From positions 1,067 to 65,066 of the forward strand of contig NZ_JBOITM010000084.1 in assembly GCF_050717535.1 (NCBI RefSeq): a stretch of DNA of 64,000 nucleotides, in the 5' to 3' direction. Shown piece after piece: positions 28,524 to 36,092 of the stretch. Positions within the stretch are counted from its first letter, which is position 1. Every line of letters begins with the position of its first letter. The translations under genes and the position numbers were made by a program. The DNA is from Clostridium sp. (lineage in GTDB: Bacteria > Bacillota > Clostridia > Clostridiales > Clostridiaceae). A model generated the notes under the pieces. It was not told the DNA's origin. It worked only from the letters and a program-made list of their open reading frames with translations, and searched no databases.

Positions 28524-28549
28524 GAGGTGTAATAAAATTATTACACCTC
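28524..28549. terminator. Bidirectional terminator
   Basis: gaggtgtaataa-aa-ttattacacctc. Confidence 0.75.
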
Positions 28550-28649
28550 AAATACGCTTGAAAGACTGCTTATTTTTTGCTTATTCAATAATATTAGTGC
28601 TATTGCCTAACTCAATAACTGCTGCTTTCTCATTGCCTAGTAAATTATA
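28548..28649 (-). pseudogene. Relic of a SpoIIP-like domain C-terminus
   Basis: Minus-strand hand translation YNLLGNEKAAVIELGNSTNIIE*AKNKQSFKRI*, echoing FNQDLSNNSALIELGNDKSS..EIEA in the adjacent gene. Confidence 0.5.
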
Positions 28650-28650
28650 A

Positions 28651-30417
28651 TTAGTTAGATGAAATCTTTTGAGTAATCTTTAATGCAGAAACCAGTGCAT
28701 TTACAGAGGCTTCAATTTCACTGTCACTGGATTTATCATTTCCAAGCTCAATAAGAGCCGAATTGTTAGATAAATCTTGATTAAAATAAGATATTCCAAA
28801 GGTATACAAGTATATTTCTGATTTAATTCCACTTGTAGTTTTAATATTGGCTATTAGGTTGTCTACGAGTTTCTTATTTGTTTTATAGTGAGGGCTCTTT
28901 TTAGTAAGGTCAAAATGTATTTTTACCGCATCAGATTTGTTTTTTACCGTTATATCACGATGTATGTCTAATAAAATAGTATTTGAATATGACTTTACAT
29001 TTTTTGTTATTAAGTCACGTGAAGTTTGATATGATTTATTATAATCTGTAGATGGGTCAATTTTTATGAAATGGCTATTAAAACCTTCACTAATAAGCTT
29101 ATCATTGAGTAAAGCACCTACATCAGTTACTTTTATTCCAGAGGGGTAAGCTTCATCAGGATGACTATTATAAATCACTATGTCAGATGAAAATGGTACT
29201 ATAGGATTTGTATTAGCTTTTGATGATTTTTTTAGAGTAAGTGCTGACGCATTTGGTGTACTATTAACTGTAATTTTAGAAGATACCACTGGCGTTTTCA
29301 CTTTCAATACTGTAGCTTTACCGATATTTTTATCTGAGCTTATATTTGAAGAGTTTAGTGCAATTCCTAGGCTTCCTATAATTATGACAACTACTGAACC
29401 AAGTAATATACCCTTAATATTTATCTTTTTATACTTTGAAATCATAATAATCCTCCTTTTTAATTCTGAACTATTCATAACCATTGGGGTAGTCCCAATA
29501 AGTCTATTACTGCTGCGAGCCAGCTCTAATACTCGTATTAATGCATTACCATATTCCAGATGACCACCTTGCTCTAAAAGTGAAATCACTCCACTATCAC
29601 AGGAGAACTCACAGTCTTGTCTCATTCTATGAAAGGCATAGAGTAAAATTGGATTAAACCAGTAAATAATTGACAACAGTGTTATAACCCAATTTATAAA
29701 CATGTCTTTGTTTTTCAAATGGGTTAATTCGTGCATTACTATATACTTAAATTCCTCATCACAAACATTAACCTCTACACTCAATGGAATTAGTATCGTT
29801 GGTTTAATTAGTCCACATAAGGAAGGACTGACTATTTTTGTAGAATATGAGAGCTCTACCTCAGTTCTTATATTCATAGTTTTCATGCAGTCATATAGGA
29901 GTTCACTATGTGCGATAGTTACAGTTTTTATAGAAGTTCTAATGATTTTTCTGAGCTTTTTATGTCCTGCAAATAATATACATATTAATAACAAAATCCC
30001 AGAGAACCATATTGTACAGAATATTTTTTTCATGTTAATATTGGTGTTTGAAGGTATATTCATAGATTGCTTAATTAAACTTTTATTTGAAGTCTCAAAA
30101 GCACTTATTGATATTGAATCCCCTAAGTTAGAACTAATAAGTTGCTCTGAACAGTTAATTTGTGATTTCTGGTTGCTTTCATTTATTGTGGACTGCACAT
30201 ATGAATTTTCATATAGATTAGAAATATTTAAAGGGGTTTGTGGTCCAAAAGGAATTATTAATTTTATGAGCAAGATTAACCATATATAATAATGAAAAGT
30301 TGGACTTAATTTATTTTTAAATATTGTTTTAGCAATTAATATTATTAGTACGATTACACCACCAATTAAAGATGAAAGTACAATCTTATCAAATATATTT
30401 ACTATAACCATACACAT
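28651..30417 (-). CDS. BlaR1/MecR1-type M56 metallopeptidase fused to a C-terminal SpoIIP-like amidase domain
   Basis: N-terminal TMs, SP...G..KP.I.IP, HELTH (HExxH), E..CD; after the last TM come IYNSHPDEAY, LDIHRD, NQDLS..ALIELG. ATG overlaps the blaI stop (TGATG). Confidence 0.85.
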   Translation of the reverse strand: MCMVIVNIFDKIVLSSLIGGVIVLIILIAKTIFKNKLSPTFHYYIWLILLIKLIIPFGPQTPLNISNLYENSYVQSTINESNQKSQINCSEQLISSNLGDSISISAFETSNKSLIKQSMNIPSNTNINMKKIFCTIWFSGILLLICILFAGHKKLRKIIRTSIKTVTIAHSELLYDCMKTMNIRTEVELSYSTKIVSPSLCGLIKPTILIPLSVEVNVCDEEFKYIVMHELTHLKNKDMFINWVITLLSIIYWFNPILLYAFHRMRQDCEFSCDSGVISLLEQGGHLEYGNALIRVLELARSSNRLIGTTPMVMNSSELKRRIIMISKYKKINIKGILLGSVVVIIIGSLGIALNSSNISSDKNIGKATVLKVKTPVVSSKITVNSTPNASALTLKKSSKANTNPIVPFSSDIVIYNSHPDEAYPSGIKVTDVGALLNDKLISEGFNSHFIKIDPSTDYNKSYQTSRDLITKNVKSYSNTILLDIHRDITVKNKSDAVKIHFDLTKKSPHYKTNKKLVDNLIANIKTTSGIKSEIYLYTFGISYFNQDLSNNSALIELGNDKSSDSEIEASVNALVSALKITQKISSN

Positions 30418-30800
30418 CAACCTTTCGTTTTACTTGATTGTTCTAGTATGTTTTTTAATTCTGCTATATCTGTTTCGGATATTTCCTCTGACTGGGCGAA
30501 GGTTAAAAGCATAGATTTAATAGAGCCATTAAATACCCTATTGACAAAGGACACACTTTCTAATTTTATGCATTCATCTTCTGATATCAAAGGAAAATAG
30601 AAGTATTCATAACCTAATTTATTAAATCCAATTACATTTTTATTTAACAATCTGTTTATCAGGCTTTTAACTGTTGCTGGTTTCCACTGGGATTTATCTT
30701 TTAGATGCTGCATAATATTGATTGATGAGATTTCGGGATTATTCCATATTATTTTCATTACTTCCCATTCAGCATTTGATATTTTAGGAATTTCAACCAT
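30417..30800 (-). CDS. BlaI/MecI/CopY family repressor
   Basis: ISNAEWEVMKIIW, W...TVKSLINRL..K..I, F.GS...M motifs; ggagg RBS before ATG 30800. Confidence 0.93.
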   Translation of the reverse strand: MVEIPKISNAEWEVMKIIWNNPEISSINIMQHLKDKSQWKPATVKSLINRLLNKNVIGFNKLGYEYFYFPLISEDECIKLESVSFVNRVFNGSIKSMLLTFAQSEEISETDIAELKNILEQSSKTKG

Positions 30801-30821
30801 TGTTATATCATCCTCCATTTC

Positions 30822-30837
30822 AATTACAATTGTAATT
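30822..30837. promoter_or_regulatory. BlaI/CopY-type operator (TACA-NN-TGTA)
   Basis: Perfect palindrome aattacaattgtaatt, 21 nt upstream of the blaI start. Confidence 0.8.
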
Positions 30838-30975
30838 TGCATTGTTTATATACTATATTCTTCAATATAATAATTATTACATTTTTATTTAAATCTACAA
30901 TTTAAATTGCTTTATTTTCTTATTTATTATAGTTATAAAAGGAACTAGAGATCCTTTGCCATAAATAGTAATAAA

Positions 30976-31090: not shown

Positions 31091-32338
31091 ATGAAATTAA
31101 AAAAGAAAACCGCAACAATTATAAGTTTTGCTATAGGTACTATAATGTTTACAACTACAGCTATGGCTCAAGTATTAACCAAAAGTGGATATGATCAACT
31201 TAAAGATTCATTTAAATATACAGCAGAAAGTTGCACCACTAAACTTTCAAGTTATACTGCTGACATGTCAGTTAGTCTAAAGGACAATGGTAATGTTATT
31301 TTTTCTGAGGATGCACTTTATAAAGTTGATGTATCAACTGGAGCAAAGGAAACTCTAACAACAGGACTTGATGGTTCGAAAAAGACAGAAAGTTATAATT
31401 ACTCTGATAAAAAAGGTTCTATATATAAAGGTAGCGAACAAAATGTTTATTATTCAACTGAATTTATAAATCCTCATGAAAATGCAACATCAAAAAACCC
31501 TTTTAAAGAAGAAAGAGCAGGAGATATAGAAAAAATTGCAGATGCTATAGTGGGTAATTTAAAAGATGCCGTTGTAGTTACTGAAAATGCAGATGGAACG
31601 AAGACTTTATCTGGCTCTTTAAGTGAAACTCAAATACCGGCACTTATTAATGCGGTGGTATCGCTTTCGTCTAAGCAGGCATTTGATAATAATAATCCTA
31701 ATAATGAGAGTAGTATGCCTAAAATAACAAATGATATATTTATAAAAGAAGTTAAGGGAAATATGGTAACAACTAAAGATGGATTAATTCAAAGTATTCT
31801 TGGCAGTGGAGTGATTTCTGGTAAAGATGCAATTGGCAAAGAGCACAAATTAACATTCGAGATATTAGGAAAATTAACCAATGTCAACTCAACTAAAGTT
31901 AGTAAACCTAATCTTACTGGTAAAAAAGTAGAAAAAAATATAGAAAAAGATTATAACAAATTATCTAATCCAGAAAAATATATAGGAAAATATAAAACAA
32001 ATATTTTAATAGAAAAGGATAATAAATTCGTAAAAATAGGCGAAAAATTCATAGATGTTACTACAGTAGACGACAACAGTATTAGTGGAAGATATTATGA
32101 AGAATATACGAAGGGATACGAAGAATACGCAACGAATAAAAAAGACTTTAAGTTTGATGTAAAATTCGAAAAGGATCAGCAGTTGAATGGGGCATTTAAT
32201 GCAAAAGACTCTTCAAATGATACCATCAAAGGTAATATATCAATAGACCAAGGTTCAGCACAAATATATTTTAACATAAATGAAAGCAGAAGTGGCAACA
32301 TGTTATTTAACGATCAATACAGTAAAGTTTTTAACTAA
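31091..32338 (+). CDS. Secreted protein of unknown function
   Basis: Basic/hydrophobic signal peptide ending AMA; first gene of the ABC/TCS run. Confidence 0.8.
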   Translation: MKLKKKTATIISFAIGTIMFTTTAMAQVLTKSGYDQLKDSFKYTAESCTTKLSSYTADMSVSLKDNGNVIFSEDALYKVDVSTGAKETLTTGLDGSKKTESYNYSDKKGSIYKGSEQNVYYSTEFINPHENATSKNPFKEERAGDIEKIADAIVGNLKDAVVVTENADGTKTLSGSLSETQIPALINAVVSLSSKQAFDNNNPNNESSMPKITNDIFIKEVKGNMVTTKDGLIQSILGSGVISGKDAIGKEHKLTFEILGKLTNVNSTKVSKPNLTGKKVEKNIEKDYNKLSNPEKYIGKYKTNILIEKDNKFVKIGEKFIDVTTVDDNSISGRYYEEYTKGYEEYATNKKDFKFDVKFEKDQQLNGAFNAKDSSNDTIKGNISIDQGSAQIYFNINESRSGNMLFNDQYSKVFN

Positions 32339-32436
32339 TAATAAATAAGGCATATGAAAATAAATAGCAAGTCAAATACAGTAAAAAACTGACTTACTAT
32401 TTATTTAAATGTGGCAGTAATTTTGGGGGTATATAA

Positions 32437-33162
32437 ATGGAGAAAGTTATTGAAATTAAAAACCTTTCCAAGGTATATAAGAATGGAAGAGGGATAACAG
32501 ATATTAATATTGATATACATAAAGGTGAAATCTTTGGGTTTTTAGGACCTAATGGTGCTGGTAAAACTACTGCTATGAAAATAATGACTGGACTTATAAA
32601 ACCAGACAGTGGCGATGTCAAAATACTGGGGCATAGTGTTTTGGAAGAATACGAGAAAGTAATGAAAAGCGTAGGTTGTATTATAGAAACTGCAGAATCC
32701 TATCTTTATTTAACAGCTTATGAAAATTTAAAACAAGTTTCGAGATATTATAAAGATGTTGATGAAGAGAGAATCCATGAAGTTTTAGAAATGACAGGAA
32801 TGTTAAAATACAAAAATGAAAAACCAAGAAAATTTTCGCTTGGTATGAAGCAGAGACTAGGAATAGCTGCTGCAATTTTACCACGGCCAGAAGTAATTAT
32901 TCTAGATGAACCACTAAATGGGCTTGACGTTGAAGGTATGATATCTATGAGAAATATAATAAAAGATTTGGTAGAAAAAGAAAATGCCACATTTTTTATC
33001 TCAAGCCATCTTATCCACGATGTTGAACTTACTTGTACCCATATTGGTGTATTATATAATGGACGAATGCTTAATGTAGACACAATGAAAAATATATTAA
33101 ATAATTATTCGTCACTAGAAAATTATTTTGTTAGCGAGGTAGAAAGAAATGGTAGAATTTAA
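32437..33162 (+). CDS. ABC transporter ATP-binding protein (BcrA/LanF-like)
   Basis: GPNGAGKT, FSLGMKQRL, ILDEP, SSH motifs. Confidence 0.95.
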   Translation: MEKVIEIKNLSKVYKNGRGITDINIDIHKGEIFGFLGPNGAGKTTAMKIMTGLIKPDSGDVKILGHSVLEEYEKVMKSVGCIIETAESYLYLTAYENLKQVSRYYKDVDEERIHEVLEMTGMLKYKNEKPRKFSLGMKQRLGIAAAILPRPEVIILDEPLNGLDVEGMISMRNIIKDLVEKENATFFISSHLIHDVELTCTHIGVLYNGRMLNVDTMKNILNNYSSLENYFVSEVERNGRI

Positions 33163-33901
33163 AGCTACTTTATTAAATGAAATTGAAAAATTATATAAAA
33201 GGAAAAAAGTTTTAGTTGCAGTAATTATATCACTTATTTTCATAATACTAGGGCAGTTGTCTATGCTAGTATTAAGAACTGGTTTTGGACTTCGAGGGGT
33301 CTCAAGTATGGATTTTCCTATACTTGTACTATCTATAGTTGTTAATACAATTCTTCCCCTATTTACGGCACTTGTAACAATAGAAAGTTTTTCGGGAGAA
33401 TTTTCACAAAACACTATGAAAATTGCACTTACAAGGCCCATCACAAGGTTAAAATTTTATACGGCGAAGTTAACTGCAATTATGTTATTCATCCTTGCAA
33501 ACCTTTTATTTTTAATGATTTTTTCAATACTCGCTGGGTGCTTTTTTAATTCAAATTCCTTCACATTTAGTAGTGTTATTAAAATCCTGATTTCTTATAT
33601 TGTTACACTGCTACCTATGGTGATTTTATCAATAATTATTGCATTTTTTGCAAACATAATTAGAAGTGGTATAGGTGTATTTTTTCTGTCAATTTTTGTT
33701 TTCGTCGCTTTTAAAGGATTAGGGATAATTTTCTATAGATTTTCGGGGGTGTTTATTACATCTATGATGAGTTGGTATACACTATTTATTATGGAAACTA
33801 TTCCAACTTTTAAAATTTTTCTTCAGTTTATGATGATGCTCAGTTATGGTATAATATTTTTTACAGCAGGATATTATTTATTTGATAAAAAAGAATTTTA
33901 G
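33149..33901 (+). CDS. ABC-2 type permease
   Basis: About 6 TMs, E...GEFSQ.T....L.RP motif; overlaps the ATPase end. Confidence 0.9.
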   Translation: MVEFKATLLNEIEKLYKRKKVLVAVIISLIFIILGQLSMLVLRTGFGLRGVSSMDFPILVLSIVVNTILPLFTALVTIESFSGEFSQNTMKIALTRPITRLKFYTAKLTAIMLFILANLLFLMIFSILAGCFFNSNSFTFSSVIKILISYIVTLLPMVILSIIIAFFANIIRSGIGVFFLSIFVFVAFKGLGIIFYRFSGVFITSMMSWYTLFIMETIPTFKIFLQFMMMLSYGIIFFTAGYYLFDKKEF

Positions 33902-33944
33902 AAGTCGCTTTTAAGTGAACTCAGTGGATTTTTGAGGTGGAAAA

Positions 33945-35387
33945 ATGAATATAAAAAAACGGTTAATTCTTTCTAATACTATAACTATAGTAATTCCTTT
34001 TTTCATTACTATTATAGCAGCATTCTTATTTGTTTTTGTTTCCTCAAGAGTTTTTAATAAGGATGTAAGTTATGATAATTTTAAAAAATTTATGTTTATA
34101 AAAACGGAACTGTCTAATACTAAAAGTGCTATATGGAAACAAAATTCTGAGGATATGGAAGATCCAGTCTATCAGAAGTATTTGTACCAAAAGCTGTCCA
34201 ATATCGATGGAGAGCTCATAATTCTTAAAAACAATACTGCTATTTTCACATCTAAGGATGTAAATAAAATAGATATAGAAAAATGTTTATTAGAATCTAA
34301 AGTTAAATCACAAAGAAAAGTAGTTGAAATTGATGCTGTTGATTACAGAGTTGAAGTAGCACCAATTAGGTTCAAGGATGAGGCGTTAGGTAGTGCCATA
34401 TTATTGGCACCAACTTTTGAGTATGCAGGTATCCTTGAAATATTTATTATATTTATCATTGGTGTATTCCTTGTTACTTTTATAGGGGTCAACATATTTA
34501 TGTCTTATCTGCTTTCAAAAAGAATAATAAAACCCTTATCACTTTTAAAGACAGCGGTTGGAGATATTAGTAAAGGGGATTTAAGTCTGGAAATAATTGA
34601 AGCTGGAGACCAAGAAATTGTGGAGTTATGCGCTGATTTTGAAAAGATGAGAATACAACTTAAGGATGCTGTTAGTTTGAAAAAAAAGTATGATGATAAT
34701 AGGAAGATGTTAGTTTCTAGTATATCCCATGATCTTAAAACTCCTTTAACTTCAATAAAAGGTTATGTTAAAGGTATTTTGGATGGAGTGGCAAATACTC
34801 CTGAAAAAGCAGAACGATATTTAAAGACTGTTTATTCTAAAGCTGAGGGTATGGATGTTATGATTAATGATTTACTTTTATATTCAAAATTAGATTTAAG
34901 TCAGCTTCCCTTTAACTTTGAAAAAACAGATATTATAGATTACTTTAATTACTGTATTCATGAAAGTACAATTGAACTTGAAAAATATAATATAAAGATT
35001 TCTTTGATAAATGACTTAAAAGGATCAATATACGTTAAGATTGATAGAGAAAGACTGATGAGGGTTATACTAAACATTATTGATAATGCTCGTAAATATA
35101 TGGATAAAGAGAAAGGTGAAATTACTATACTACTTAGGGAAACTAATTCTAGTATTATTATTGAGATAAGAGATAACGGTTCTGGCATTGATAAGAATGA
35201 TGCAAATAAAATTTTTGACAGGTTTTATAGAGCAGATACTGCAAGGAGTGAAGCGAATGGAAGTGGACTTGGACTTGCCATTGCAAAACAAATTGTGGAG
35301 GGACACAAAGGGAAAATATGGGCTATAAGCCATGAAAGCAAGGGTACAAGTATTTTGATGTCATTTGGAAAAATATCAGAAGGGTAG
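33945..35387 (+). CDS. HAMP-domain sensor histidine kinase
   Basis: Two TMs, HAMP, SHDLKTPLT H-box, N/D/G boxes (DNGSGI, GSGLGLAI). Confidence 0.96.
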   Translation: MNIKKRLILSNTITIVIPFFITIIAAFLFVFVSSRVFNKDVSYDNFKKFMFIKTELSNTKSAIWKQNSEDMEDPVYQKYLYQKLSNIDGELIILKNNTAIFTSKDVNKIDIEKCLLESKVKSQRKVVEIDAVDYRVEVAPIRFKDEALGSAILLAPTFEYAGILEIFIIFIIGVFLVTFIGVNIFMSYLLSKRIIKPLSLLKTAVGDISKGDLSLEIIEAGDQEIVELCADFEKMRIQLKDAVSLKKKYDDNRKMLVSSISHDLKTPLTSIKGYVKGILDGVANTPEKAERYLKTVYSKAEGMDVMINDLLLYSKLDLSQLPFNFEKTDIIDYFNYCIHESTIELEKYNIKISLINDLKGSIYVKIDRERLMRVILNIIDNARKYMDKEKGEITILLRETNSSIIIEIRDNGSGIDKNDANKIFDRFYRADTARSEANGSGLGLAIAKQIVEGHKGKIWAISHESKGTSILMSFGKISEG

Positions 35388-35396
35388 AGGATTAAT

Positions 35397-36092
35397 ATGA
35401 AGAGAATTTTAATAGTCGAAGATGATGAAAGCATTGCTGAACTTGAAAAAGACTATTTAGAGATTGAGGGATTTGAAGTTAAAATCTGTAACAATGGTGT
35501 GGATGGGTTAAATGCATTAAAAACAAACAAATTTGATTTGTTAATTCTTGATGTTATGCTTCCTAAAATTGATGGATATACTATTCTACGTAGTCTCCAA
35601 GAGGAAAAGGATATTCCGGTTTTGATGGTTTCTGCAAAAAAAGAAGATATTGATAAAATAAAGGGGCTTAGTCTTGGTGCGGATGACTATATTACAAAGC
35701 CATTTAACCCCAGCGAATTAGTTGCTAGAGTTAAGTCGCATCTTCGGAATTATGAAAGAATAAAAAACAAATTTAAGAGTGAAGCCCCTAATAGTACAGT
35801 TATAATAAGAGGCCTAGAAATAAGGAAAGACTGCAGACAAGTATTTATGAACGGCATTGAAATAAATCTAGCACAAAAGGAATTTGAACTATTGCTGTAT
35901 CTGGCCGAAAACCCTAATAGAGTATTTAGCAAAGAGGAATTATTTGAAAGAATCTGGGGATTTGATGCTATAGGAGATACTGCAACTGTTACAGTACATA
36001 TTGGTAGAGTTAGAGAGAAAATTGAGGTATCTACGTCTGTTCCTCAATATATTGAAACTGTTTGGGGAACTGGGTACAGGCTTAGGGTATAA
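35397..36092 (+). CDS. OmpR-family response regulator
   Basis: EDD, LDVMLP..DG, GADDY..KPF, IETVWG.GY motifs. Confidence 0.96.
   Translation: MKRILIVEDDESIAELEKDYLEIEGFEVKICNNGVDGLNALKTNKFDLLILDVMLPKIDGYTILRSLQEEKDIPVLMVSAKKEDIDKIKGLSLGADDYITKPFNPSELVARVKSHLRNYERIKNKFKSEAPNSTVIIRGLEIRKDCRQVFMNGIEINLAQKEFELLLYLAENPNRVFSKEELFERIWGFDAIGDTATVTVHIGRVREKIEVSTSVPQYIETVWGTGYRLRV

Follow-up and report, generated by a model that had tools for sequence, protein, structure and literature searches.

What does a BlaR-like membrane protease sense when the domain that it carries outside the cell is something other than a penicillin-binding domain, and what does it control? This question is raised by a pair of genes on the reverse strand of a 64,000-nt stretch (the window) of contig C84 (71.5 kb), part of a 4.45-Mb Clostridium genome: blaI, encoding a BlaI/MecI-type repressor, and a second gene encoding an M56 protease fused to a SpoIIP-like extracellular domain (the fusion protein; its C-terminal domain is called the ectodomain below). 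A description made earlier from the DNA letters (the original prediction) had placed here a TACA-NN-TGTA operator, a blaI-like repressor and a coupled M56 protease with the motif HELTH and a SpoIIP outer domain, with neither an SxxK penicillin-binding domain nor a beta-lactamase nearby, and we find all of these elements where it had put them. The parts list, its conservation and the operator are established by sequence analysis, from which we infer the identity of the signal, the cleavage step and the output. We consider it fairly probable that the pair forms a self-repressed regulated-proteolysis switch of the BlaI/BlaR type, whose input is a peptidoglycan-recognising SpoIIP-like domain and whose ancestral output was a SpoIIP-type autolysin.

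The repressor belongs to the BlaI/MecI family along its entire length. It matches PF03965 (Penicillinase_R; E 3.6e-32) over profile positions 1-115 of 115 and aligns end to end with the S. aureus MecI and BlaI structures 1SD6, 1OKR and 1SD4 (E 3e-22 to 4e-19), and it scores below the NCBIfam cut-off for BlaI. A copper repressor of the CopY type was considered and ruled out: the protein has no CxCxxxxCxC tail, its sole cysteine being C77 (SEDECIK), and the CopY model (TIGR02698) gives 97.8 bits against a cut-off of 121.95. The true start of blaI is most likely the ATG at 30800 (MVEIPK..., 127 aa) rather than the mechanical start of the open reading frame (ORF) at 30842, because the Pfam domain begins at residue 21 of the mechanical ORF and because the ribosome-binding site serves ATG 30800; the palindrome described below would therefore lie upstream of blaI and not inside it. 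At the other end of the gene, its TGA stop shares bases with the cluster of TTG/ATG starts of the fusion gene (TTGATG, 30420-30415), an overlap that reads as translational coupling of the fusion gene to blaI.

The N-terminal part of the fusion protein (586 aa in its database copy, P0003) has the layout of a BlaR1-type protease. Hydrophobic segments at residues 12-30, 38-56, 133-151 and 337-355 give a hydropathy profile consistent with four transmembrane (TM) helices, and the M56 core comprises TM1-3, an extracellular loop (EL1, 30025-30246), the motif HELTH at residues 230-234 (29719-29733), a conserved Glu in QDCEFSCD (29596-29619) and an ELKRR loop (29452-29466). Residues 12-335 align to residues 3-303 of S. 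aureus BlaR1 (8EXP and 8EXS), and the region aligned to the BlaR1 self-cleavage loop is conserved across the fusion family. Between TM4 and the ectodomain runs a tether that is poorly conserved, with a mean pairwise identity of 0.37. The NCBIfam model blaR1_generic covers the protein over profile positions 1-322 of 585 only (213 bits against a cut-off of 400), and no match to PF00905 is found in it. With no penicillin-binding domain and such a partial match, the fusion protein is BlaR-like, not a BlaR1 (BlaR1/MecR1 being represented by NF000326, NF033108 and NF033109). Nor does contig C84, along all of its 71.5 kb, hold any gene matching PF00905 (transpeptidase domain) or PF13354 (class A beta-lactamase), and the syntenic locus of C. 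bowmanii likewise has no gene matching either.

What, then, stands in place of the penicillin-binding domain? The ectodomain matches Pfam SpoIIP (PF07454) with E 1.9e-25 and 90.3 bits (cut-off 24.4) over residues 401-580, profile positions 70-268 of 269, and it carries the motifs YNSHPDEAY (417-425), DIHRD (485-489), FNQDLS (546-551) and LIELG (556-560). The model of SpoIIP proper, TIGR02867 (spore_II_P), scores it at 89.3 bits, below the cut-off of 123.15. When the 200 C-terminal residues were searched against 1.8 billion representative proteins (232 matches at E <= 0.001), the nearest relatives were other M56 fusions, along with signal-anchored proteins of 200-260 aa that stand alone, at 46-56% identity, whereas canonical SpoIIPs of 340-400 aa matched only at E ~1e-13 and weaker. 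Alignment shows that fusion domains and short stand-alone proteins share a trimmed form: both are without the N-terminal ~130 aa of canonical SpoIIP, without its ~14-aa insert after HxxE and without its ~8-aa insert after HRD, and both read YN[ST]HxxE where canonical SpoIIP reads YH[ST]HxxE. In a FastTree tree of 148 domains (with local support values), the ectodomain falls into a 64-member clade (support 100) of 39 short proteins, 24 fusions and 1 protein of canonical length, and separate from the canonical SpoIIPs. On well-supported branches of this tree the fusion label must change four times or more, so fusion or fission happened more than once. The genome's canonical spoIIP adjoins gpr (locus L001, contig C69), and the fusion gene is not next to gpr. 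The score below the TIGR02867 cut-off, together with this gpr-linked spoIIP and a second paralog elsewhere in the genome, indicates that the ectodomain is related to SpoIIP but is not the engulfment SpoIIP; on these sequence comparisons, it is a member of the Pfam SpoIIP superfamily and not an equivalog-level SpoIIP.

The predicted structure places this domain among peptidoglycan amidases. An AlphaFold2 (AF2) model of the ectodomain, built from a 26-sequence alignment, has a mean predicted local distance difference test score (pLDDT) of 89.6 and a predicted template modelling score (pTM) of 0.87. The top 18 Foldseek matches of this model in the PDB are all Amidase_3-type peptidoglycan amidases (E 7e-7 to 4e-5, template modelling score 0.51-0.61), among them AmiC2, AmiB, CwlD, AmiP, Rv3717, Ami1 and a phage endolysin domain. 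Entries 5EMI, 8C0J, 7RAG, 4RN7 and 4M6G match at E 7e-7 to 5e-6, and with 7B3N added the range is E 7e-7 to 6e-5 at template modelling scores of 0.54-0.61; the next matches are zinc hydrolases of the HxxE...H kind, such as aspartoacylase and M14 carboxypeptidases. The PDB holds no SpoIIP structure, and at the level of sequence the ectodomain has no match to PF01520. Sequence searches of the PDB with the ectodomain and with the family profile returned chance matches only (e.g., adenylosuccinate synthetase and YacP) and were set aside, so that the fold comparison alone is informative here. We conclude that the ectodomain is confidently predicted to have an Amidase_3-type fold. The structure prediction proposed for the C-terminal domain thus bears out a SpoIIP-related outer domain, as originally described, while the sequence comparisons move it out of canonical SpoIIP and into the separate short clade. 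The model puts H420-x-x-E423 after strand 1, with H487 at the end of the ILLDIHRD strand and E558 at that of the ALIELG strand. We take these to be the positions at which Amidase_3 and M14-type enzymes put their metal ligands and general base.

To see which of these residues are held, we aligned three classes of protein to one hidden Markov model (HMM) and counted the clusters that keep each residue. The canonical-length SpoIIPs (n = 44) keep H420, E423, H487, R488 and D489 in all 44 clusters and E558 in 43. The M56 fusions (n = 86) keep H420 in 86, E423 in 85 and H487 in 86, with R488 in 74, D489 in 57 and E558 in 67, the replacements of E558 being Asp (8), Asn (6), Gly (2), Gln (1) and others (2). 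The short stand-alone proteins (n = 80) keep H420 in 72, E423 in 75, H487 in 71, R488 in 52, D489 in 46 and E558 in 54. The protein of the window keeps all six, together with Y417, Y425, D485, N547, D549, S551 and G560, and its sole departure from the canonical SpoIIP invariants is N418, where 41 of the 44 canonical clusters have His; the N-x-D-x-S motif is invariant or nearly so in the fusion family. Because 19 of the 86 fusion clusters lack the Glu at 558 but the H/E/H triad hardly varies, catalysis is probably dispensable for the core function of the family. A strict triad with a variable general base suggests a receptor that binds its ligand but need not turn it over.

The original prediction had the Zn ligands and the catalytic Glu retained. 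The HxxE...H triad and the Glu of LIELG are indeed kept here, but the label of Zn ligands for these residues is an assumption, and the Glu is the very residue that part of the family has lost. The His of HxxE is the likelier counterpart of C. difficile H142 and B. subtilis H189, since it is invariant, which the His before it is not, and since it suits the B. subtilis spacing. Selection on the protein is uneven along its length: the ratio of nonsynonymous to synonymous substitution rates (dN/dS), calculated against three orthologs, is 0.34-0.53 in the ectodomain, 0.17-0.31 in the protease core and 0.69-0.87 in the tether. The ectodomain is thus under purifying selection, and the tether and EL1 drift.

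The putative operator is the best-conserved non-coding feature of these loci. The TACA-NN-TGTA element of the original prediction, TACAATTGTA at 30825-30834, sits within a perfect palindrome, AATTACAATTGTAATT, 5 nt 5' of the ribosome-binding site GGAGGA. By itself, the pattern TACANNTGTA is no rarer than chance in the window (3 seen, 1.7 expected, and at least 3 in 25 of 100 shuffles); the exact 16-mer AATTACAATTGTAATT occurs once in the genome. In all 16 fusion loci examined, a TTAC-N4-GTAA dyad, mostly TTACAATTGTAA, stands just 5' of the ribosome-binding site between flanks that have otherwise diverged. The spacer of the candidate promoter contains a further, imperfect inverted dyad, TGTAATAATTAT (30870-30881), and an equivalent promoter with an exact GTAATAATTAC dyad is kept in C. 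bowmanii and Clostridium sp. CF012. Many fusion loci have a second dyad 26 bp upstream, overlapping a TTGACT-17-TAAACT promoter, and two dyads in this arrangement are the classic BlaI/MecI layout. The window (compared over 30822-30860), C. bowmanii and CF012 have a single dyad, which looks like the product of a deletion between two direct repeats that also removed the TAAACT -10 box. In the relatives at loci L009, L014 and L016 (the last from C. frigoris), the two dyads, TTACAATTGTAA ... TTTCAATTGTAA, are ~26 bp apart. Remoter members of the family show a conserved TGTAA-N6-TTACA dyad just 5' of the -35 box.

The most informative context, and one absent from the original prediction, is the gene that follows the fusion gene in sister species. 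In four genomes (C. bowmanii, Clostridium sp. CF012, C. estertheticum and one metagenome-assembled genome), a full-length SpoIIP paralog of 361-387 aa with both N-domain and core, here called SpoIIP2, lies 43-91 bp 3' of the fusion gene on the same strand. In C. bowmanii no terminator separates the two genes and the only terminator follows the paralog; its hairpin, which ends a three-gene operon blaI / M56-SpoIIP / SpoIIP2 there, is also the hairpin of the window terminator. The two loci are otherwise syntenic, with a response regulator, a histidine kinase, an ABC transporter and a 416-aa protein (415 aa in the window) on one side and proC, a small acid-soluble spore protein (SASP), DegV and ACC on the other. 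Homology between them ends ~10 nt past the fusion stop and resumes at the last codons of SpoIIP2 and the terminator. The window has ~60 nt between the fusion stop and the terminator with no counterpart in C. bowmanii, and one frame of this interval reads ..AAVIELGNSTN.. (..YNLLGNEKAAVIELGNSTNIIE, then a stop), resembling the way in which a SpoIIP domain ends (NQDLS...LIE(V/L)G). The match is weak, at 6.7 bits to positions 147-172 of a custom SpoIIP-core HMM; with the break in synteny, it makes this interval probably a relic of a deleted operon gene, SpoIIP2.

Where did the gene go? The genome keeps three SpoIIP-domain genes, as its sister species do, and its own SpoIIP2 lies on another contig at C23:12535-13659 (locus L002, 1228-2352). 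This copy is 82% identical to the operon gene of C. bowmanii, the level of an ortholog, versus 61% to the gpr-linked spoIIP. The region upstream of it is unrelated and has no BlaI-type dyad, so the presumed output gene is uncoupled from the switch. The simplest reading of these comparisons is that the ancestor of the subclade had an operon of blaI, the M56-SpoIIP-like sensor and SpoIIP2, and that in the present lineage SpoIIP2 was relocated and the original was deleted.

The same design of sensor and free paralog also appears intact in this genome, at a second locus. At C66:18803-23229 (locus L004 and beyond), a BlaI/M56-NAGPA pair (NAGPA being a phosphodiester glycosidase) precedes a free NAGPA paralog of 335 aa, and an exported protein of 342 aa comes next. 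This paralog is 49% identical to the NAGPA ectodomain of the sensor, blaI at this locus has a similar dyad, ATATTACATGTGTAATAT, and the trio is also present in C. estertheticum (L009). Altogether the genome has four BlaI/M56 pairs (C66, C84, C20 and C67; L004-L007), whose ectodomains are NAGPA, SpoIIP-like, DUF4830+DUF4367 and DUF4825. None of the four has a penicillin-binding domain, and the organism is thus without a canonical BlaR1.

The features of the locus are collected in the table.

Features of the blaI/M56-SpoIIP-like locus, in window coordinates
Feature	Position	Strand	Basis or remark
Candidate sigma-70-type promoter, TTTAAA-18 nt-TATATT	30864..30893	-	consensus scan only
Putative BlaI-type operator, perfect 16-bp palindrome AATTACAATTGTAATT (core TTACAATTGTAA), between promoter and ribosome-binding site	30822..30837		
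GGAGGA ribosome-binding site of blaI	30811..30816	-	read from sequence; 10 nt before ATG 30800
BlaI/MecI-family winged-helix repressor, 127 aa	30417..30800	-	PF03965
M56 protease/SpoIIP-like fusion protein, 586-589 aa by start used (TTG 30420, ATG 30417, ATG 30411)	28651..30420	-	
Peptidase_M56 core, residues 14-327	29440..30381	-	PF05569, E 3.7e-65
TM4 (residues 333-355), then Ser/Thr/Asn/Lys-rich tether of ~45 aa	29206..29424	-	hydropathy
Extracellular SpoIIP-like domain, Amidase_3-type fold (predicted)	28654..29220	-	PF07454 and AF2/Foldseek
Probable relic of 3' end of deleted SpoIIP2	28572..28649	-	synteny break and weak SpoIIP-core HMM match
Intrinsic terminator, hairpin GAGGTGTAATAATTTTATTACACCTC then T-run	28524..28549	-	facing end of proC

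Divergent from blaI, the forward strand at 31091-36092 encodes first the 415-aa protein, an exported one that neither Pfam nor NCBIfam models match, and then an ABC ATPase and an ABC-2 permease ahead of a histidine kinase and a response regulator. This block is syntenic in C. bowmanii but not at the other loci of the family, so it is probably unrelated to the switch.

The census of M56 proteins with a SpoIIP domain that the original prediction had proposed shows a family of its own, of ~90 protein clusters altogether: ~77 clusters at 90% identity carry PF05569 together with PF07454, and all named ones are from Clostridium. Its members include proteins from C. bowmanii (83% identity over the C-terminal domain), C. 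estertheticum, C. tagluense, C. sediminicola, C. beijerinckii, C. chromiireducens and others; remoter fusions, at 32-41% identity and including an 876-aa form, are again from Clostridium where they are named. blaI is directly upstream in 15 of the 16 fusion loci examined, and no other conserved neighbour family was found around either the fusion loci or the loci of the stand-alone short SpoIIP-like proteins. In C. frigoris (locus L016, 6814-8570) the fusion gene is broken into a 168-aa and a 425-aa ORF that overlap, the mark of either a frameshifted pseudogene or a sequencing error.

How might such a switch work? By homology with BlaI/BlaR1, a dimer of the repressor would occupy the dyad and block its own operon. 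The ectodomain may bind a feature of peptidoglycan in its metal/active-site cleft, candidate ligands being a stem peptide, either free or linked to MurNAc, and wall that is damaged, uncross-linked or being remodelled. A ligand derived from peptidoglycan is our best guess: the fold points that way, as do the cleft residues that are kept and the SpoIIP paralog in the operon of the sister species. The variable Glu suggests that what is conserved is the need to bind the ligand and not to turn it over. Occupancy of the cleft, possibly with slow turnover, would activate the cytoplasmic zinc protease, as acylation by a beta-lactam does in BlaR1, and the protease would cut the repressor near T100 and F101, so that the operon is derepressed. 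The ancestral output of the operon would have been the co-transcribed full-length SpoIIP paralog, an autolysin of the amidase/endopeptidase type. With SpoIIP2 moved to contig C23 and without an operator there, the only recognisable output in the present genome is the sensor-enzyme itself and the repressor, and most of the family is alike in this.

Several observations weigh against this reading. Twelve of the 16 loci, the window included, have no linked effector gene, and a genome-wide operator scan, the route to a regulon proposed in the original prediction, found no second target and no further convincing operator-bearing gene. The system is patchy, being present in 10 of 30 species of the organism's GTDB genus, and its gene is split in C. 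frigoris, which together imply that it is dispensable. At the expected point of cleavage the repressor differs from its models: we take the BlaI/MecI cleavage site to be that between N101 and F102 of S. aureus BlaI, in the C-terminal dimerisation helix, and the aligned position in this repressor lies between T100 and F101 (LLT/FAQ), with the Phe kept and the Asn changed to Thr, so that a T-F pair stands where BlaI and MecI both have N-F. The catalytic-Glu candidate is replaced in the 19 fusion clusters listed above, and constraint on R488 and D489 is relaxed. No metal (zinc) was detectable in purified C. difficile SpoIIP, yet its H142 and H222 are essential (PMC6221140), which leaves the chemistry of the SpoIIP family unsettled. 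Binding of peptidoglycan by the ectodomain is itself inferred from predicted fold and residues only. Finally, a search of sequencing runs with words from the locus returned only three metagenome DNA runs, with 5-6% of the words, and no RNA-seq or isolate reads.

The scan behind the second of these points was as follows. ATTAC-N4-GTAAT occurs 22 times in the genome versus 21 expected, and the intergenic matches of the TACA/TGTA type are, besides the operator's own site, that of the C66 blaI paralog, a single one on C81 and three identical copies of one element. These copies form a long hairpin, CCCTTTTAATGAATTACATTTGTAATAAATTCATTAAAAGGG, at C84:71443, C27:21234 and C94:57175, ~90-175 nt from contig ends, and one of them lies beside a gene for a 568-aa large serine recombinase (C84:69479-71185, outside the window). 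As BlaI targets they were rejected, since the dyad in them is the loop of the long hairpin and mimics an operator by chance; the hairpin probably forms one end of a repeated mobile element.

Could the sensor itself be the effector? On this account the fusion protein would be a membrane-tethered, inducible peptidoglycan amidase/endopeptidase whose dosage the BlaI/M56 pair sets by feedback, with no separate regulon and with more hydrolase made when its substrate or product appears. Most loci of the family do in fact consist of the two genes alone, without a conserved neighbour, the genome scan turned up no other gene with the operator, and the protein of the window keeps every canonical SpoIIP active-site residue, including E558. 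Yet ~22% of the family has lost the Glu and many members have lost the R and D of HRD while keeping the metal triad and the M56 protease, and in the sister species the operon includes a full-length SpoIIP as a dedicated effector; we regard this account as unlikely. The same relaxed constraint on R488, D489 and E558 relative to canonical SpoIIP would suit a pseudo-enzyme, in which the SpoIIP fold is a mere scaffold for recognising something other than peptidoglycan: a protein partner from machinery of the SpoIID, SpoIIM or SpoIIP2 type, a lytic enzyme of a competitor or phage, or a small molecule unrelated to the wall are candidates. The absence of the N-terminal region and the two inserts of canonical SpoIIP agrees with such a role, as does the wide diversity of ligand domains among published BlaR-like sensors, whose ligands are unpredictable. 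We nevertheless think it improbable, given that H-x-x-E...H and N-x-D-x-S are near-invariant, as expected if the substrate cleft is still used, and given that linkage to a SpoIIP paralog in the sister species points to a shared, wall-derived ligand.

It might also be asked whether the pair has any function left in this genome, since after the loss of SpoIIP2 it could be an orphaned remnant that controls nothing useful and is heading for decay. The deletion that left the probable relic, the patchy distribution with its split gene in C. frigoris, and a dN/dS against C. bowmanii somewhat higher than in remoter comparisons would all fit. Against this, both ORFs are intact with all motifs present, the palindrome of the operator is perfect and so surpasses that of C. 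bowmanii, dN/dS is below 1 in all domains, and most members of the family are without a linked SpoIIP2, the two-gene unit being the normal state; there is little chance, we believe, that the pair is a remnant. Our preferred reading thus remains a self-repressed switch with a peptidoglycan-recognising input. A bolder form of it, which argues by analogy and which we put forward as a speculation with the odds against it, would make the ectodomain a working or slow-turnover amidase whose engagement of substrate is the signal, as acylation is in BlaR1: a direct receptor of the chemical state of the cell's own wall, wired to a SpoIIP-type autolysin. In its general form, BlaR-like sensors would recruit their input domain from the enzyme family of their effector, as the pairs SpoIIP-like/SpoIIP2 and NAGPA/NAGPA might illustrate.

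The family is a favourable test case for sensing by BlaR-like proteins that do not recognise beta-lactams. Its sensor is a folded, enzyme-like domain whose class of ligand is predictable (MurNAc-L-Ala or a peptidoglycan stem peptide), nature supplies versions that keep the putative catalytic Glu and versions that lack it, and the presumed output, a SpoIIP-type autolysin, is still in the operon of sister species. Orthologs are present in genetically tractable solventogenic clostridia such as C. beijerinckii, which makes non-beta-lactam BlaR sensing directly testable and would show whether bacteria monitor their own wall with a receptor derived from a hydrolase. If sensor domains do come from the enzyme family of the effector, a neighbouring gene could reveal the ligand of many an orphan BlaIR system.

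How does the pair compare with systems already described? Only ~6% of the ~15,000 catalogued BlaR-like proteins can bind beta-lactams. An InterPro census lists 254 M56 architectures, with M56+Amidase_3 and M56+M23 among the nine that have at least 100 entries (PMC13492132); M56+SpoIIP is not among these nine. The catalogued architectures also include M56+DUF4825, and their ligands were judged unpredictable (Kurtz et al. 2026, PMC13492132). A review of M23 proteins notes that a role of M56 in peptidoglycan cleavage has not been shown. Our literature search found no paper that mentions SpoIIP together with BlaR1 and none that reports an experiment on an M56 fusion carrying a peptidoglycan-hydrolase domain. 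Like the original prediction, we know of no characterised example, although the class to which the protein belongs, BlaR-like M56 proteins with a C-terminal domain of peptidoglycan-hydrolase type (Amidase_3, M23), was catalogued in 2026 (PMC13492132). The M56-SpoIIP-like pair is an uncharacterised sensor combination in a known type of switch, not a new kind of system.

The likeness to BlaI/BlaR1 and MecI/MecR1 of S. aureus and B. licheniformis (8EXP-8EXT, 1SD4, 1OKR) extends through the whole switch: the order of repressor and then sensor-protease is the same, the winged-helix repressor aligns at full length, and dyads of the TACA/TGTA type stand at its own promoter. The proteases share the four-TM M56 core with HExxH, the downstream Glu, the cleavage-loop region and a sensor placed outside the cell after TM4. 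They part at that sensor, which in BlaR1 and MecR1 is penicillin-binding or class-D-like and in the window is SpoIIP-like with an Amidase_3 fold; the window pair moreover has no beta-lactamase or penicillin-binding protein as a target gene and falls below the NCBIfam cut-offs for both BlaR1 and BlaI. With SpoIIP of B. subtilis and C. difficile, for which amidase/endopeptidase activity and essential His residues have been shown (PMC6221140), the ectodomain shares HxxE, (D)xHRD, NQDLS and (L)IE(x)G, and counterparts of the invariant His residues are present; it differs in reading YN[ST]H rather than YH[ST]H, in missing the N-terminal ~130 aa and two inserts, and in belonging to a separate clade. 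The stand-alone short, exported and uncharacterised SpoIIP-like proteins of Clostridium (e.g., P0083-P0090; L022, L026-L034) have the same trimmed layout with YN[ST]HxxE, but they are single-domain and signal-anchored, have no M56 or BlaI gene within 8 kb, and more often have degenerate active-site residues.

The closest functional parallel is CenIR of C. difficile, which like the window pair is a BlaIR-family system without a beta-lactam domain (PMC13492132). Its depletion induces the amidase Cwp6, and its signal is not known (PMC13492132). The literature on CenIR thus shows that BlaR-like systems without penicillin-binding domains act in control of the cell envelope. The sensor of CenR, however, is a short, mostly disordered tail with no identifiable domain, whereas the ectodomain of the window protein is predicted to be a folded, enzyme-like module, one that suggests its own ligand.

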